This document shows, one piece after another, positions 12,914 through 23,516 of a stretch of 64,000 nucleotides of DNA. This DNA comes from an uncultured bacterium. GTDB taxonomy: Bacteria; Babelota; Babeliae; Babelales; Vermiphilaceae. Positions within the stretch are counted from its first letter, which is position 1, and every line of letters starts with the position of its first letter. Below the pieces are notes generated by a model, which saw only the letters and a program-made list of their open reading frames with translations, made no database searches and had not been told where the DNA came from. The stretch lies in the NCBI GenBank assembly GCA_963695335.1, contig OY968764.1, positions 128,001-192,000 on the forward strand. The letters are read 5' to 3'. A program made the position numbers and the translations under genes.

Positions 12914-13501
12914 ATGGAACAAACACCACCAGTACCACAAATAGTCATCACACAACCTGCTAAAACTAAGCACAATACAGTAAGCCGACAACAGATATTA
13001 GACACAGTAACAAAACACAAACATGAACATAACAATCAAATAAAAGAGATAAAAAAAATTATCTTTCAATCTACTAATCTTCTAAATGAGCAAGAAGAAG
13101 CTATTCTAAAGCAACAAGAAATAACTACAAAACATGAAAAATTAATTGATGGACTCAACTCAGAACAAATAAAACTTGATATGTCAATTTTAATGCTCGC
13201 TGAGACTGGCACAAGCTTACAAGAAAAATTAGAAAATAATGAAAAAATCACTCAATTATTATGCAAAGCTCGCGGCGATATTGAAACTGAATTTATCGCA
13301 CTCAAAAAAATAACCTCAAACCTAGAAACCAAAATAAGCAACAACGAAGAACAAATTTCATCGCTGCACAGAGAACTGATCCTACAAAATACGCTTCATG
13401 AAATCGAAGCGCAAGAACTCAAAACTACGGTTGAAAAACAAAAGCAGGCAATGTTCAACTTAACAGCGCTCATCTTACTATGGTACTATTCCAAAAAATG
13501 A
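12914..13501 (+). CDS. Coiled-coil protein with hydrophobic C-terminus
   Basis: Long heptad pattern ending AMFNLTALILLWYYSKK. Confidence 0.65.
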   Translation: MEQTPPVPQIVITQPAKTKHNTVSRQQILDTVTKHKHEHNNQIKEIKKIIFQSTNLLNEQEEAILKQQEITTKHEKLIDGLNSEQIKLDMSILMLAETGTSLQEKLENNEKITQLLCKARGDIETEFIALKKITSNLETKISNNEEQISSLHRELILQNTLHEIEAQELKTTVEKQKQAMFNLTALILLWYYSKK

Positions 13502-13505
13502 AATA

Positions 13506-14168
13506 TCACAAGTTAGATTCTTTAATCGCATCTAAATAAATATCAATACTATATTCAACTGCAGAAATGATAACTGCATAAAACTGATCAAAATCATCCG
13601 TTTGCCGTGCATGTTCAATTGCATCAATATATGCAGAACGCTGTTCTTTTTGAATAATTGCCAACGGATATCCCTGCTGTAACAGTAATAAATTCATCAA
13701 CAAACGGGCTGTTTTAACATTGTAAATTGTTGCCAATTTATAATGCGCCAGCGCTGCAATAATCACTGGATGATCTGTGACGGAATTTAACCATTGTATA
13801 AAAATAATAAGATCCAAAGATGGATCTATTTTTTCTGAACTGTATTTGTAAAGAGCACAAACGTCTTCAACAGAAATAGCATTTTGGCTACGTACAAGCG
13901 TTGCAATAAATTTCATTGCTCGCGCACAATCAATAAGTTCAATATGTTCTTGTAATGTTTTACCACCAATAGCAATGCCCTTTTCAACAACAATAGCTGT
14001 TTCCATATGGGATAGGCTATTGCCTTCAAGGGCATTTGTTTCATAAATAAAATTTATCGTAAGCCATTCTTGCAAATTTTTTTCTAATTCTGGCGGCAGA
14101 GGACGTACTGCATCTAATTGTTTCTTTTTTTCATCAATACGTTTGAGGGATTCTTGTATATTTTCCAT
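13506..14168 (-). CDS. Fic-family protein with deleted active-site motif
   Basis: YETNALEGNSLS, GGKTLQEH, AHYKLATI-YNVK-TARLLMNLLLLQQGYP; HPFxDGNGR is missing. Confidence 0.8.
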   Translation of the reverse strand: MENIQESLKRIDEKKKQLDAVRPLPPELEKNLQEWLTINFIYETNALEGNSLSHMETAIVVEKGIAIGGKTLQEHIELIDCARAMKFIATLVRSQNAISVEDVCALYKYSSEKIDPSLDLIIFIQWLNSVTDHPVIIAALAHYKLATIYNVKTARLLMNLLLLQQGYPLAIIQKEQRSAYIDAIEHARQTDDFDQFYAVIISAVEYSIDIYLDAIKESNL

Positions 14169-14243: not shown

Positions 14244-15395
14244 TGTCTAGGTTCAGAAACATATGAGACTAAAAAAAATAAAATCTTAAAGTAATAGATT
14301 AGAATTTAATACAATAGGGCCAGCCATAAAAATATCAAATTTAGGAGGCCCTATTATGATGCAGACGAGTATTCTGCAAAAACGACTATATCACATTAAT
14401 GCAGTAGATGAAACAGACTATTCCAAAATTGTATACGAACGCAGAGATAAGCTTGATAAAATGGTACTTTTGCTCAGTGAAGGATGCTCAGAAAGCGCGG
14501 CCTTAGAAGCTATCAATATCCCTCGTTCAACATATTATCGATGGAAGCGAAACTACAGATTATTTGGACTTGCCGGACTGGAAGATGAAAGCAGACGTCC
14601 CACTCATAGGCGTAAGCCAAATTGGTCAAAAGAAATTGAATTACGAGTATATGATTTACGTAAAAAATATCCTTTATGGGGCAAGCAAAAACTTGCCGTT
14701 ATGTATCAACGAAAATACAACATTAAAATATCGCAAAGCATGATTGGAAGAATACTTTCGAAATTATTGAAGCGTGGAAAAATTACACGAGTAAAAGTAC
14801 TTCTTTATGGAAAAAACGAAACAAAAAAACGTATTTTTGATAACCATGCCCAGCGATGGAAACATGGCATGAAAGCGCGACAAGCTGGTGAATTAGTTCA
14901 GATAGACCATATGACGGTAAATATTCCAGGATTTGGATATCTTAAACACTTTAGTGCGACTTGCCCTACCACAAAATACACTGCTTATCAGGTTTATCAG
15001 GAGGCGACAAGTAAAAATGCTGCCGATTTTCTTGAGCATATCAAACAGGAATTGCCTTTTCCGATCCGGTCAATCCAAGTGGATGGAGGAGCCGAATTTA
15101 TGGCATATTTTGAAAATGCCTGTAAAAAAGCCAAGATTCCCCTTTTTGTGCTACCTCCTCGATGCCCCGAACTTAATGGGAACGTCGAAAGAAATAATGG
15201 TACTGCAAAATATGAGTTTTATGCTCAATACAACGCATTTCCCAACTTTTATACAATTAGGCAAAATCTACAAAAATTTGGTTTATTCTACAATTTTGAG
15301 CGCCCTCACCAAGGAATAGGGCTTTTGACACCCAGTCAATTTTGCGAGAAAATAAATATAAGGCCCTGAAGTCTCATATGTACTGAACCAGGACA
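14244..15395 (+). mobile_element. IS481-family insertion sequence
   Basis: TIRs TGTCTAGGTTCAGAAACATATGAGACT (14244-14270) and AGTCTCATATGTACTGAACCAGGACA (15370-15395); 5-bp DR CGCTT at 14239-14243 and 15396-15400. Confidence 0.88.
14356..15369 (+). CDS. DDE transposase (HTH + rve), IS481 family
   Basis: IPRSTYYRW HTH, LVQIDH, IQVDGGAEF, NGNVERNNGT, YNFERPHQGIG. Confidence 0.9.
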   Translation: MMQTSILQKRLYHINAVDETDYSKIVYERRDKLDKMVLLLSEGCSESAALEAINIPRSTYYRWKRNYRLFGLAGLEDESRRPTHRRKPNWSKEIELRVYDLRKKYPLWGKQKLAVMYQRKYNIKISQSMIGRILSKLLKRGKITRVKVLLYGKNETKKRIFDNHAQRWKHGMKARQAGELVQIDHMTVNIPGFGYLKHFSATCPTTKYTAYQVYQEATSKNAADFLEHIKQELPFPIRSIQVDGGAEFMAYFENACKKAKIPLFVLPPRCPELNGNVERNNGTAKYEFYAQYNAFPNFYTIRQNLQKFGLFYNFERPHQGIGLLTPSQFCEKINIRP

Positions 15396-15400
15396 CGCTT

Positions 15401-15429
15401 TTGACAAACTGAATTGTTTTTCGTAATAT
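15401..15429 (+). promoter_or_regulatory. Sigma70-type promoter of the AAA+ gene
   Basis: TTGACA-17 bp-TAATAT directly after the IS DR. Confidence 0.7.
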
Positions 15430-15499
15430 TATAGTAATAATCATAGTTTTATACATTATATCAATATTTCTATTATTTTTACCAAAAGGGACAATTCTT

Positions 15500-17059
15500 A
15501 TGAAAAAATATCAATTATATCACGTTTTAACGCTCTTAGTGGGCCTACAAGGTCCTATCGCTATCTTAGCTGAAGAAAGCTTCAATCTCCCTAAGCTAAC
15601 TGTTAACGTCCATTTGGATAACTTAGATAACTTAAGTGAAGCTATTGGAGATGGCACTAAAGATATTATCAAAGAAGTTGTTACAAGTGTTGCTGAAGGT
15701 ATTGCACAAGCAGGAACAGATAAATCTTTTGGCAAAAACTTAAAAGAAGGTCTTACTGGCATAACACATCAAACTGCCGATGCCTTTAAAGATGCAATGA
15801 ATGACAAACATATCGGAGATTCTCTTAGAGAAGGTCTTACAACTGGTGCTACACAAGCAACAGATGCTTTCAAAGATGCAATGAACGATCCAAATCTAAA
15901 AAATAGTATTAAAGATGGTGCTGATGCTTGGGCATCTAATGTCGGACAAGCAGCACAAGGAGCACAGCAAGGTCTTGAAAGAGAAGTTTGGCCATCTGTA
16001 ACAAAAATGAGTAATCAAGGTATTGCTTCAATTTTTAATCTACAAAACGCTATGCAAATAGTCGGACCATATGCATTTGGTGCCGTAGTCTCTATATCTG
16101 CAACATATGGAACAAAATTAGCATGGCAACTTCTTGAGAAAAAACTCTTAAATCCAAAACCAACAATTTTATTGCCAGGCGCAAAAGTTGGTCGCTGGGA
16201 TAGAGTAAGCCGTTGGAGATCTGGATACCAATCGCCTGCAATGATTTTTGATGAACAAGTTAAAGATCGTCTTATAGAAATTGAAGAAAAAACAAAAAAT
16301 ATTCGTGATCATATTTATAACGGTAAAAAAGCAACCTATGATAACTTGCTTCTTTACGGTAAACCAGGTACGGGTAAAACATTATTTGCACAAATCTTAG
16401 CAGATAAAACTAACATGGATTTCTTGCCTGTTACTGCAGGTTCATTATTGCAATCTGGTGTTGAAGGTATTAAATACGTCAACGAACTTGTTGATATAGC
16501 TAATAATAGTAGATATGGCGCAATTATTTTTGTTGATGAAGCCGATGCTCTCTTTGTAAATAGAGACAGCCTTGACCCTTCATCTGACCATTACAAAGTA
16601 CTCAACCACATCTTGGCTCTCACTGGTAATGGTAGCAATAAATTTATGTTAATTGCTGCAACAAACCACGCATACGTAATGGATGAAGCAATGGGTCGTC
16701 GTTTTCAAGACCGTGTATTAATGCCATTGCCGAACACAACAACACGTAAAGAACTATTCGATCTTTATAATAATAATGTTCTATTTAATACAAAAAATAA
16801 TGGCACAGAATTTGTTAAAACAGCTAAATCATTACTAACGCCACAACAGATCAATACCTTGGTAGAACAAACAGAAGGTTTATCACACGCTGAAATAAAA
16901 GATGCTGTGCATGCAATGCATAAAAAAGCGCTTGCAACCAAGACAGGCATCATCACTATGACACACATTAACAATGCTATTAAACAAGCTATTGAAAAAC
17001 GTGAAGCACTTGAAGCTGATAAACAAGAGCGTGAACAACATCACAAAGTAATCGCTTAA
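15500..17059 (+). CDS. Exported AAA+ ATPase, ATAD3-like
   Basis: Signal peptide; internal repeat L(K/R)[13 protein letters not shown]; TM segment; [33 protein letters not shown]. Confidence 0.8.
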   Translation: [519 protein letters not shown]

Positions 17060-17153: not shown

Positions 17154-17969
17154 TCACGCTGCTGCATAAAATTTTTGGTACAAAACATATGCGATAATTC
17201 CAACAATTGAAGCGCCAAACAATTTTTTGATTCGAGAATAAAACAAAGCCGTTTTGATTGCTTTGTAATCTTGTCTTATTTCTTCTTTTACTTCTTTTCC
17301 AAAGTACCCATTAATTCCTTGAGCATATTCCTGCAAGTGCTCTTTGTGTGTACCAGCTTCACGTAACTCTCTTTTACATATAATACCAGCGTCGCACAGC
17401 TCTTTTTCAAGATCTTTGGTAGGCACAATTGTTAGTACTACACTACCCTCATTCTCTATATGTCCTGGTTCACAGCATGGCATTTCTTTAAATTGATTTA
17501 AAAAAACTTGAGGATCCATCTTATCAAAGCTCGTATTTAGTTGAATTTTAAACCCATTTTCCATACCTTCGAATTGCTTTGAACAAGATAAGAGTTCATC
17601 ATGACGCTCCTTAAAAGAAACATTTGATTTTCGTGGATCAATATTGTCTTTCATAAAATATCTATAAGGAACCAATGTAATAGGATCAAGAAATTTTTGT
17701 AAACTCTGTTCTTCTTCTGATGCCCATCTACTCTTTTCTCCTCGAGTCCACTGATAATATATCATTAAAAAAGGCTCATTCTGTTGACATTGTATGCCAT
17801 ACTCATTGTTCAAAAAATCGATATATTTTTTATCACAATACCGCAATGGATTATAAGTTAATCGGCCAACATGAGCATCAAAAATAACAATTTCATCATT
17901 TTTTTCACTACCAAAAACTTGTCCAACACAACCACTCAACACAAGCAACTTCAACAACACGTTTTTCAT
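17154..17969 (-). CDS. Hypothetical exported protein with C-terminal TM
   Basis: MKNVLLKLLVLSGCVGQVFG signal; LFGASIVGIIAYVLY tail. Confidence 0.7.
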   Translation of the reverse strand: MKNVLLKLLVLSGCVGQVFGSEKNDEIVIFDAHVGRLTYNPLRYCDKKYIDFLNNEYGIQCQQNEPFLMIYYQWTRGEKSRWASEEEQSLQKFLDPITLVPYRYFMKDNIDPRKSNVSFKERHDELLSCSKQFEGMENGFKIQLNTSFDKMDPQVFLNQFKEMPCCEPGHIENEGSVVLTIVPTKDLEKELCDAGIICKRELREAGTHKEHLQEYAQGINGYFGKEVKEEIRQDYKAIKTALFYSRIKKLFGASIVGIIAYVLYQKFYAAA

Positions 17970-18095
17970 AATTTTTATCCCCATCGAATACACAAATTGT
18001 AATAGATCATAATACAATCATATCCTGACAAACAAATTTGAGCAACTCAGCTATTTTCATTTACAACAACAATCTTTTTCCTGTATTCTTAAACC

Positions 18096-21001: not shown

Positions 21002-21061
21002 TCATCCTGAGCCTGTTGAAGGGTTAAGCGCTTAATTCTTCAACAAGTTCAGAATGAGCGC
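21002..21061. repeat. Family A inverted doublet upstream of ddl
   Basis: TCATCCTGAGCCTGTTGAAGG ... TTCTTCAACAAGTTCAGAATGAGCGC. Confidence 0.8.
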
Positions 21062-21092
21062 AATAAGAACAAAATTTAAGGCTAATAAAATC

Positions 21093-23516
21093 ATGAAAAA
21101 AATACGTATTGGCGTCCTGATGGGCGGCAAATCATTGGAAAAAGAAGTATCTTTTAACACCGGCAGAACGGTATGTGACTATATTGATACAACGCAATAT
21201 ACAACGGTTCCACTCTATCAAACAGGTTCAAAAATATATCTGTTACCGTGGCACTTTTTACATCGTGGCAAAACAACAGATTTTGAACATCGCTTACATA
21301 ACGAAGCAGAATATATTGCATGGGACGATCTTAAAAATTATGTAGATTTTATCTATATTGCTCAACATGGTCGCTATGCTGAAGATGGCACATTGCAAGG
21401 CTTTTTAAATATTCTTGGCATCCCTTATCTTGGTTCCAATGTTTTTGCAAGTGCATTGCGCACCGATAAAATTATGCACAAAACATTTTTAAATAACGCT
21501 GGCATTGCAACTCCAAAATTTGTTGCTGTTGAACCATATGAGATTGATAACTTTGAAAAATATAAAAATAATATTCTTAAGCAACTTGAAAATCTTTATC
21601 CACGCGCTCGCCCTGAACTTGTTGAAGAATTAAGCGCTCAAAGATATCCTTCGACAGGCTCAGGACGAGCGCACAAGAACAAAAATAACACACCTGATAT
21701 CAATGATCTTTTCGTTGTTAAACCATTTAACGAAGGCTCAAGCCTTGGTATTTCCATTGTTACCAAAGATAATCTAGAAAACGCACTCAAAAAAGCGTGC
21801 TACATTGAACCTGGCAAAAAAAAGCGTGTACTTATCGAAGAAAAAATTACCGGCATGGAATTCACCTGCATCATTTTAACTGATCATAAAACTGGCGAAC
21901 TTTTTGCGCTTCCTCCAACAGAAAGTGTTTCTGATGAAGAAGTTGGTTTTTTTGATTATGAACAAAAATACATGCCAGGAAGAGGTATAAAACGCACTCC
22001 AGCACGTTGCAGTGATGAAATAACAAAACATATTCAAGAAACATGCATACACGTCATGCAAACATTAGAATTTGATACAATGTGCCGCATTGATGGGTTT
22101 CTAACACATGATAACACAATTGTTATTATTGATCCCAATACACTTTCTGGGATGGCACCATCAAGTTACATTTTTAACCAAGCAGCAGAAATTAATATGA
22201 GCCCTGCGCAACTTGTTAACTATATTATTGAAACAGAACTACACCGCTATAACCTCATAACCACAGATATGAACAATACAACATCAGAAATATCATCACT
22301 CATTCAAAAAATTCGTGTTGCCATTTTACTCGGTGGTGCATCAAATGAAAAAGAAACATCACTCGATTCTGGCCGCAACGTCTTTTACAAATTATCGCCA
22401 CACAAATATGATCCTATCGCAGTTTTTGTGAGCGACGCATTAGAACTGTATATCTTGACACAATCACAACTGGTGCGTAATTCAACAAAAGAAATTATTG
22501 AACTGTTACAACCGTCACAAAAAATTAAATGGAGCGATTTATCTGCTATTGCAGACTTTGTATTTATTGGGCTCCATGGTGGTGAAGGTGAAGATGGTTC
22601 TGTGCAAGGTACATTAGAAATACTTGGCATGCCATATAACGGATCATCTGTGCTTGCGAGCGCGCTGTGTATGAATAAATATAAAGCGAATGAGCTGCTT
22701 GCTGCGCACGACTTTAATGTACCTAACAATATTTTGCTAACAAAACATCAATGGGATAATTCTTTATCTCAATCTAATTCTTACTGCGCTCGTCCTGAAC
22801 TTGTTGAAGGATATCCTCGAGCGCTCGAAAATATTTCCCCCGCTCCCCCTGAGTGCCACGATAGTGGTGTATCGAAGGGTTACGAGCGAATAAAAGAAAT
22901 CACAACAAAATTATCATATCCATTAATAGTCAAACCGCACGATGATGGCTGCAGCGTGATGGTGCAAAAAGTAACCAATGATGAAGAATTAATCGTGGCA
23001 ATAGAAAATGTATTACAAGAAAAAGATGCAGTGCTCATAGAAGAATGTATCACCGGCATGGAACTCACTGTTGGAGTTATGGGTAATCAACATCCCCGCG
23101 CATTGCCACCAAGCCAAGCAATTTCTTTAAGTGGTGTACTTTCTATAGAAGAAAAGTTTTTGCCAGGCGCTGGTGAAAATCAAACACCTGCACCACTACC
23201 ACAAAATGCATTAGAATTTGTGCAACGCACTATGGAACGTGCATTTACAACGTTGCAATGCAAAGGATATTCACGTATTGACTGTTTTTACCAAACAGCC
23301 GAGCAAAGCCCAACCAAAAAAGAACGGGTAATTATTTTAGAAAACAACTCATTGCCTGGATTAACACCTGCAACATGCTTGTTCCATCAAGCAGCTGAAA
23401 TTGGTTTAAAACCGATGGATTTTCTGGATCAAATAATTATGCTGGGATTTGAAGAACATAGACCTGCAGTCATCAATTCTTCCTTTCGCGCTCATTCTGA
23501 ACTTGTTGAAGAATAA
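21093..23516 (+). CDS. ddl: Tandem-duplicated D-alanine--D-alanine ligase (two ATP-grasp modules)
   Basis: Two copies of GGxSxEKExS, HGxxxEDGxxQG, vVKP, EEKITGME/EECITGME, RIDxF, NTLSG/NSLPG; likely start MKKIRIG. Confidence 0.92.
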   Translation: MKKIRIGVLMGGKSLEKEVSFNTGRTVCDYIDTTQYTTVPLYQTGSKIYLLPWHFLHRGKTTDFEHRLHNEAEYIAWDDLKNYVDFIYIAQHGRYAEDGTLQGFLNILGIPYLGSNVFASALRTDKIMHKTFLNNAGIATPKFVAVEPYEIDNFEKYKNNILKQLENLYPRARPELVEELSAQRYPSTGSGRAHKNKNNTPDINDLFVVKPFNEGSSLGISIVTKDNLENALKKACYIEPGKKKRVLIEEKITGMEFTCIILTDHKTGELFALPPTESVSDEEVGFFDYEQKYMPGRGIKRTPARCSDEITKHIQETCIHVMQTLEFDTMCRIDGFLTHDNTIVIIDPNTLSGMAPSSYIFNQAAEINMSPAQLVNYIIETELHRYNLITTDMNNTTSEISSLIQKIRVAILLGGASNEKETSLDSGRNVFYKLSPHKYDPIAVFVSDALELYILTQSQLVRNSTKEIIELLQPSQKIKWSDLSAIADFVFIGLHGGEGEDGSVQGTLEILGMPYNGSSVLASALCMNKYKANELLAAHDFNVPNNILLTKHQWDNSLSQSNSYCARPELVEGYPRALENISPAPPECHDSGVSKGYERIKEITTKLSYPLIVKPHDDGCSVMVQKVTNDEELIVAIENVLQEKDAVLIEECITGMELTVGVMGNQHPRALPPSQAISLSGVLSIEEKFLPGAGENQTPAPLPQNALEFVQRTMERAFTTLQCKGYSRIDCFYQTAEQSPTKKERVIILENNSLPGLTPATCLFHQAAEIGLKPMDFLDQIIMLGFEEHRPAVINSSFRAHSELVEE
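21604..21672 (+). repeat. Family A doublet in-frame in ddl module 1
   Basis: GCGCTCGCCCTGAACTTGTTGAAG...CTTCGACAGGCTCAGGACGAGCGC encodes ARPELVEE..PSTGSGRA. Confidence 0.85.
22786..22888 (+). repeat. Two family A units in-frame in ddl module 2
   Basis: GCGCTCGTCCTGAACTTGTTGAAGG and CGCTCCCCCTGAGTG..TGTATCGAAGGG encode ARPELVEG..APPECHDSGVSKG. Confidence 0.85.
23487..23514 (+). repeat. Family A unit forming the ddl C-terminus
   Basis: CGCGCTCATTCTGAACTTGTTGAAGAA encodes RAHSELVEE before the stop. Confidence 0.8.

Follow-up and report, generated by a model that had tools for sequence, protein, structure and literature searches.

An ATAD3-like AAA+ ATPase predicted at the inner membrane of an uncultured Dependentiae bacterium

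A 64,000-nucleotide stretch of DNA from an uncultured bacterium of the Dependentiae (contig OY968764.1, positions 128,001 to 192,000; referred to here as the window) encodes a membrane AAA+ ATPase, P0001, whose helix-plus-AAA module is, on the comparisons described below, almost certainly akin specifically to that of the mitochondrial protein ATAD3. ATAD3 is indispensable in animals as well as in Plasmodium, and in humans it is a disease gene. The sequence of P0001 shows directly that the Walker A, Walker B, sensor-1 and arginine residues are intact and that a specific homology to ATAD3 extends from the membrane helix as far as the C-terminus. Our overall interpretation, to which we assign a probability of about 0.6, is that P0001 represents an inner-membrane relative of ATAD3 with a cytoplasmic motor and a periplasmic helical N-terminal region, and that it organizes or remodels the cell envelope. 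The genome in which it was found is a single contig of 1.37 Mb, 94% complete, with one gene of the P0001 type.

That P0001 is a relative of ATAD3, resembling it outside the generic AAA core as well, was proposed in an earlier annotation made from the DNA and its open reading frames (ORFs) without database searches (hereafter the sequence-only reading), and this proposal was supported by searches in both directions, by the comparison of profiles and by phylogeny. All six motifs it had quoted were located in the translation, at residues 212–223, 248–267, 282–297, 306–308 (MDF), 344–350 (FVDEADA) and 374–384, and the ATAD3 motifs it had cited, including RTGQHSNKFML, were present in ATAD3 sequences (the A2 consensus and P0295). 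The best 120 database matches to P0001 were all at least 43% identical to it. To exclude this family, residues 170–519 of P0001 (350 residues) were searched against proteins of 614–2000 amino acids. The four best matches were then bacterial, followed by ATAD3, and by our count 97 of the 120 matches listed were ATAD3 proteins with both PF12037 and PF00004, predominantly those of fish, with others from lamprey, macaque, insects and molluscs. The listed ATAD3 matches scored 108–124 bits in one domain, at 29–36% identity over 65–93% of the query, whereas two-domain Cdc48/VAT proteins reached 109–122 bits only when both of their domains were summed. A direct BLASTP comparison of P0001 with macaque ATAD3 gave 136 bits (E 2e-38; 33% identity over 242 residues with 3 gap positions), and in the reverse search, of macaque ATAD3 against the genome encoding P0001, P0001 ranked first (119.8 bits) and FtsH second (34.6). 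In an Atlas look-up with the homolog P0012, which we treat as a lead only, clusters of ATAD3 ranked 3rd, 4th and 10th, and clusters from Chlamydiota and Bdellovibrionota were also indicated.

Profiles also separated ATAD3 from other AAA proteins. A hidden Markov model (HMM) of the family core gave ATAD3 proteins 141–157 bits, with the match covering model positions 5–259 of 261, as against 60–82 bits for Cdc48 domains, 76 for FtsH and 38–78 for a set of giant multi-AAA proteins. In the genome encoding P0001, which has 16 matches to PF00004, the same model scored P0001 at 497 bits and the next protein, FtsH, at 76. When profiles built from 19 family members and 13 ATAD3 proteins were compared with each other (hhalign), they aligned over 302 columns with a probability of 99.96 and an E-value of 4.7e-39. 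Both this E-value and that of the BLASTP comparison put the resemblance far above the level of chance. The profile alignment equates residues 194–503 of P0001 with residues 300–614 of ATAD3 (P0295). It starts in the membrane helix and continues through the juxtamembrane linker, the AAA domain and the lid to the last helix, leaving the N-terminal portions of both proteins unaligned.

The P0001 family and ATAD3 are each other's best match outside their own groups, and they have homologous parts in the same order: a helix, a linker of ~85–90 residues, the AAA domain, a lid with an insertion of roughly 15–20 residues in both, and a C-terminal helix. Pfam found in P0001 the AAA domain alone (82.8 bits against a cut-off of 21.2), which together with the presence of the second region of homology places the protein among the classical AAA proteins. 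K293, D346, N389 and R401 were invariant across 38 diverse family members, and K293, D346 and R401 aligned with the corresponding ATAD3 residues. The pair of arginines R400-R401 is kept in P0001, whereas ATAD3 has Asp-Arg. ATAD3 has the coiled-coil ATAD3_N domain, a proline-rich motif and a second (outer-membrane) segment, and P0001 has none of the three; in the place of ATAD3_N there is a variable helical region preceded by an N-terminus of signal type. It is also, unlike ATAD3, encoded on a bacterial chromosome. The best NCBIfam matches of P0001 were IteA (87.3 bits; cut-off 510), PAN (86.2), CdvC (80.9; cut-off 650) and FtsH (66.2; cut-off 600). These names were dropped, as all of the scores are far beneath the cut-offs of 500–650 bits.

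Phylogenetic analysis also placed the bacterial family with ATAD3. Our more careful maximum-likelihood tree (LG+C20+F+G4; 95 rows, 263 columns) had an ingroup of 9 close relatives, 31 library representatives, 23 proteins from Dependentiae genomes and 10 ATAD3 proteins, all of the last from metazoans, and an outgroup of 22 domains (5 FtsH, 4 CdvC, 8 Cdc48 D1/D2 and 5 other AAA) that was without Rpt/PAN, Bcs1, Msp1 and katanin-type proteins. Three very long paralogs from the genome encoding P0001 were excluded. The Dependentiae family and ATAD3 were together split from the 22 outgroup rows at 100/100; a grouping of P0001 with generic bacterial AAA families, the outcome on which the sequence-only reading had let its proposal depend, was not seen. 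ATAD3 was monophyletic, likewise at 100/100. At the base of the ingroup, ATAD3 branched in a polytomy with two small groups of Dependentiae proteins and one main clade of them (56 rows, 95/99). A quick tree of 80 rows recovered the same ingroup at 98, with ATAD3 nested deeper. In an approximately unbiased (AU) test, a topology in which all bacterial rows were held together was not rejected (delta lnL 0.60, p 0.495), and therefore a sister and a nested position of ATAD3, and either direction of transfer, are compatible with the data. It is possible, although we hold it only tentatively, that ATAD3 and this envelope ATPase family of the Dependentiae share an exclusive ancestor, so that ATAD3 would not be a eukaryotic invention. 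As part of that same doubtful proposition, the ancestor may have moved from an intracellular bacterium into an early eukaryote, or vice versa.

Within the Dependentiae the family is patchily distributed. Using a match to residues 194–519 at E ≤ 1e-30 as the test of membership, we surveyed 261 genomes and observed the family in 57 (45 of the 189 genomes of high quality), representing 33 of 145 genera and 8 of 21 families. Some genomes had two or three copies, often in tandem. The top 150 representatives from a library of 1.84 billion proteins were all family-like, and a cluster look-up named 4 of 20 library representatives, one of them as "Candidatus Dependentiae bacterium". A motif scan of contigs was also made with generic AAA patterns; of at least 600 stretches, 80 loci were kept, and the 3 of these that were at the level of the family (L030, L031 and L032) say little about its occurrence outside the Dependentiae. 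One of them, L030, is titled "uncultured Pseudomonadota bacterium", but its flanking ORFs were 100% identical to those of L004, a locus of the window's own genus (G007), and given this identity the phylum label looks wrong. Two further groups of AAA proteins were noted during these searches. Outside the window, on the minus strand at G000:C1:517031-521224, are three tandem AAA paralogs (460, 462 and 427 amino acids) that are very divergent and had long branches in the quick tree. P0135, P0136, P0143 and others, which were among the top library matches, are giants of 1,000–2,100 amino acids with 3–6 AAA domains that are ~31% identical to P0001; their domains fell in the outgroup of the quick tree.

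The cellular location of P0001 was considered from its predicted topology. Its hydropathy profile has two hydrophobic segments, at residues ~4–28, directly after MKK, and ~181–206. We judged the N-terminus to be of signal type from this profile, and a possible cleavage point follows ..AILA within residues 1–25. An N-terminal hydrophobic segment was found in 30 of 38 family members and in 0 of 13 ATAD3 proteins. The flanks of the second segment have a net charge of +1 on the N-terminal side and +6 on the C-terminal side. Because P0001 combines a signal-type N-terminus with one span, a positive-inside flank of +6 and a helix homologous to that of ATAD3, its ATPase probably lies on the cytoplasmic side, as a motor at the bacterial inner membrane, and we infer that the N-terminal region is periplasmic. 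The genome encoding P0001 also encodes two secretins, and an outer membrane and periplasm are therefore expected. The spacing from helix to Walker A was also similar in the two groups, being 82–91 residues in those family members (24 of 38) in which the helix was detected and 89–90 in 13 of 13 ATAD3 proteins. In ATAD3 the ATPase is in the matrix, the helix in the inner membrane and the N-terminal part directed outward, as described in PMC13249166. The predicted layout of P0001 matches this, with the motor in the cytoplasm in place of the matrix and the N-terminal region between two membranes. The sequence-only reading had called the protein exported, with a signal peptide, helical repeats and a transmembrane segment. 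The N-terminal segment and the repeats are present, and the membrane segment is only moderately hydrophobic, with a 19-residue Kyte-Doolittle maximum of 1.26; the description as exported was not supported for the ATPase, which the signal-type N-terminus, the +6 flank and the ATAD3-like helix spacing together predict to be cytoplasmic.

The N-terminal half is the variable part of the protein. In alignments of the P0001 family, strong conservation begins only at the membrane helix. Residues 26–183 match no Pfam family and have no aligned counterpart in ATAD3 in the hhalign comparison, and they are helical by prediction, at low confidence, in the AlphaFold model. In related genomes we also observed two small stand-alone ORFs of 183 and 159 amino acids (G001:C32:17238-17735 and G004:C42:1831-2025) that lack an AAA domain and resemble only the N-terminal region and helix of P0001, at 27–38% identity.

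We propose that P0001 would be anchored in the bacterial inner membrane by its one helix, with the AAA+ motor in the cytoplasm. Ring formation is typical of classical AAA proteins, and P0001 may likewise assemble as an ATP-driven ring. Hydrolysis of ATP in the cytoplasm would then be coupled to the periplasmic helical arm, and the ring could organize or remodel the cell envelope, a counterpart to the action of ATAD3 between the inner and outer membranes of mitochondria. This role in envelope organization, which is argued by analogy with ATAD3, is the more speculative part of the interpretation, and taken by itself we would not favor it.

Several observations weigh against this interpretation. 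The ATAD3_N domain (PF12037) was not found in P0001 by Pfam (E ≤ 0.1), nor in any of the 91 of the 150 library representatives that were scanned for it (E ≤ 1e-7 or 1e-9), the remaining 59 being 24 close family members, multi-domain giants and short fragments. The part of ATAD3 that is thought to reach the outer membrane is consequently without a detectable counterpart in P0001. A PF12037 search of the whole genome also gave zero matches, although control profiles gave none either. The membrane helix of P0001 fell under the Kyte-Doolittle cut-off of 1.4 that was used to survey 38 family members and 13 ATAD3 proteins, and so went undetected in P0001 and in 12 other members; in one member the sole segment detected at this cut-off lay off the homologous position. 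A structure prediction, one of the checks suggested by the sequence-only reading, was obtained, and the AlphaFold model was confident only at residues ~240–519, with the N-terminal half at a predicted local distance difference test score (pLDDT) of <50. No chain named ATAD3 was among the matches listed from searches of the PDB by sequence and by fold, and with no solved ATAD3 structure there, the comparison of folds cannot discriminate. A family seen in 57 of 261 genomes is not a core component of the envelope, and no conserved partner gene was observed beside P0001 at the window locus.

The alternative that survives best, and which we nevertheless consider unlikely, retains the topology and gives the protein another job, that of an extractor of membrane proteins or quality-control unfoldase resembling Msp1/ATAD1 or a protease-less FtsH. 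The PDB sequence and fold (Foldseek) searches returned classical AAA proteins over the core (VAT, Rix7, Cdc48, Rpt, FtsH, Msp1 and Vps4), and the presence of Msp1, FtsH and Vps4 among them is in keeping with such a function. FtsH is, like the predicted P0001, a classical AAA protein anchored at the inner membrane with its motor in the cytoplasm, and it is the second-best AAA protein in the same genome. However, P0001 has no M41 peptidase or other protease domain by Pfam, and its one span after a signal-like segment is not the FtsH arrangement. A further resemblance is to the CdvC/Vps4-type and Msp1-type proteins, which we take to be the "meiotic" clade. The second region of homology in P0001 is without the "PG" insert of FtsH and Cdc48 (GR--RF in P0001, LR--RF in CdvC), so that the arginine motif, in which both arginines are kept, resembles the archaeal CdvC motif LRRFQKRVYVPLP. 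Against this, the tree groups P0001 with ATAD3 and has both CdvC and FtsH in the outgroup, and the pore loop is of a different kind. Where unfoldases have an aromatic-hydrophobic-Gly motif, as do FtsH, Cdc48 and CdvC (KWLGEGE in the last), P0001 has Ser-Gly-Val (SGV--EG) and ATAD3 has MGR--EG. The lack of the usual aromatic pore loop in both suggests that the main activity is something other than the threading or unfolding of substrates, although some family members do have a Phe adjoining this site, one position earlier.

Considerably less probable is that P0001 is a secreted effector that leaves the bacterium, inserts in host mitochondria and imitates or interferes with the host's own ATAD3, which was the suggestion of the sequence-only reading. 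A cultured Dependentiae species reorganizes the host mitochondrion, and 44% of its proteins have signal sequences, according to PMC6561590; P0001 too has a signal-type N-terminus, and if its weak second segment did not halt translocation, all of the protein would pass through the inner membrane. This is opposed by the alignment of that segment with the inner-membrane helix of ATAD3, by the +6 flank that follows it, and by the equivalent segments of homologs, which are clearly hydrophobic (up to 2.22). No match to VirB4 (type IV secretion) or FHIPEP (type III) was found in the 94%-complete genome. The deep, diverse branches within the Dependentiae, the tandem paralogs and the patchy spread fit an endogenous membrane family at least equally well. 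The idea of a mimic acting on host mitochondria therefore fared poorly, given a predicted topology that argues against export of the motor and a family that is old and diverse within the Dependentiae.

The age and diversity of the family likewise indicate that the gene was not recently copied from a host. Dependentiae live inside protists and the closest characterized relatives of P0001 are eukaryotic, so that a recently captured ATAD3 gene with no bacterial role of its own was considered, but it is very improbable: identity to ATAD3 is only 29–36%, deep branches occur in 8 of the 21 Dependentiae families, the N-terminal domain differs, and the G+C content of the gene region (0.34–0.37) is the same as that of the rest of the window. 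An ancient transfer, whichever its direction, would be in line with the AU test (p 0.495). Finally, an anti-phage defense ATPase of the IteA type (NF042959) is scarcely credible, since IteA, although the best NCBIfam match, scored about the same as PAN and CdvC and far below its cut-off, as expected of a generic AAA match, and no defense-like gene context was found around P0001.

The features of the gene and its surroundings are collected in Table 1. In the region, 9 promoter-like sites were found against 7.0 expected, and the site listed is a consensus match only. The transposase gene lies between the AAA gene and the divergent 220-amino-acid gene. It is absent from the syntenic site in the closest relative (L002), which has the pair of AAA gene and 220-amino-acid gene with no transposase between them. 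Homologs of the 287-amino-acid ORF adjoin the AAA gene only in that relative, and PriA follows this ORF downstream; in G005 we observed three tandem paralogs of it adjoining the AAA gene. The upstream same-strand ORFs at the related loci examined sort into several groups that show no BLAST similarity to one another, and none of them matches the N-terminal region of P0001 or the neighbors in the window. For several of these ORFs, homologs occur elsewhere in the genome encoding P0001, for example at 851–853 kb. Farther along the window, an ORF of 820 amino acids (21054–23516, plus strand) has two stretches each of the N- and C-terminal domains of D-Ala-D-Ala ligase, and appears to be a tandem Ddl-Ddl fusion.

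Table 1. Features of the P0001 gene, its predicted product and neighboring genes; positions are those of the window.
Feature	Position	Strand	Remarks
Bacterial ATAD3-like membrane AAA+ ATPase P0001	15500..17059	+	ATG start, ORF of 519 amino acids
Promoter-like TTGACA-17-TAATAT	15401..15429	+	~70 nucleotides 5' of start codon; 10/12 consensus matches
Shine-Dalgarno-like AAGGGA	15486..15491	+	8 nucleotides 5' of ATG; sequence reading, consensus match only
Residues 1–25, predicted Sec signal peptide or signal anchor	15500..15574	+	MKK then hydrophobic stretch
Residues 26–183, variable helical region, predicted periplasmic	15575..16048	+	Ala/Gly/Asp/Lys-rich
Two 28-residue repeats, residues 81–108 and 109–136	15740–15907	+	DAFKDAMND in each
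Residues 184–206, predicted single membrane span	16049..16117	+	Moderately hydrophobic; homologous to ATAD3 inner-membrane helix
Residues 207–281, juxtamembrane linker	16118..16342	+	Family-wide conservation; aligns to ATAD3 IEARLxKPSL... stretch
AAA domain PF00004, residues 283–409	16346..16726	+	Pfam E 4e-23
Walker A, G287–T294	16358–16381	+	Includes invariant columns
Walker B D346-E347; sensor-1 N389; arginines R400 and R401	Within AAA domain	+	
Residues 410–505, helical lid with insertion common to ATAD3, and C-terminal helix	16727..17014	+	
Transposase gene (HTH_32 + rve_3)	14356..15369	+	Upstream neighbor; not part of the system; single copy in 1.37 Mb genome
Convergent ORF, 287 amino acids, no Pfam family	17154..18017	-	Downstream of P0001
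ORF, 195 amino acids, no Pfam family	12914–13501	+	Glu/Lys/Gln-rich, hydrophobic C-terminal tail
ORF, 220 amino acids, no Pfam family	13506–14168	-	55% identity at syntenic site in G005

ATAD3 is treated as a eukaryotic protein in PMC3790746 and PMC13249166. Its occurrence is given as animals, plants and protists in the former, and "bacteria" and "prokaryot" are absent from the main text of the latter. Among the papers listed by searches of the open-access literature and bioRxiv, we found no description of bacterial homologs of ATAD3 or of any link between ATAD3 and the Dependentiae. What appears to be new here, as judged from homology, is the occurrence of the ATAD3 helix-plus-motor module in a bacterium, joined to a different N-terminal region that is predicted to be Sec-targeted. 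Being small and intron-free, a protein of the P0001 family would lend itself to structural and enzymatic studies of the ATAD3 type, and if the two do share an exclusive ancestor, P0001 would be a simpler working model of the machine by which ATAD3 spans from inner to outer membrane. The existence of a bacterial family also makes the origin of ATAD3 testable, whether that origin lies in exchange between intracellular bacteria and their hosts or in common descent. For the biology of the Dependentiae, the family would add an unstudied and variable component of the cell envelope.

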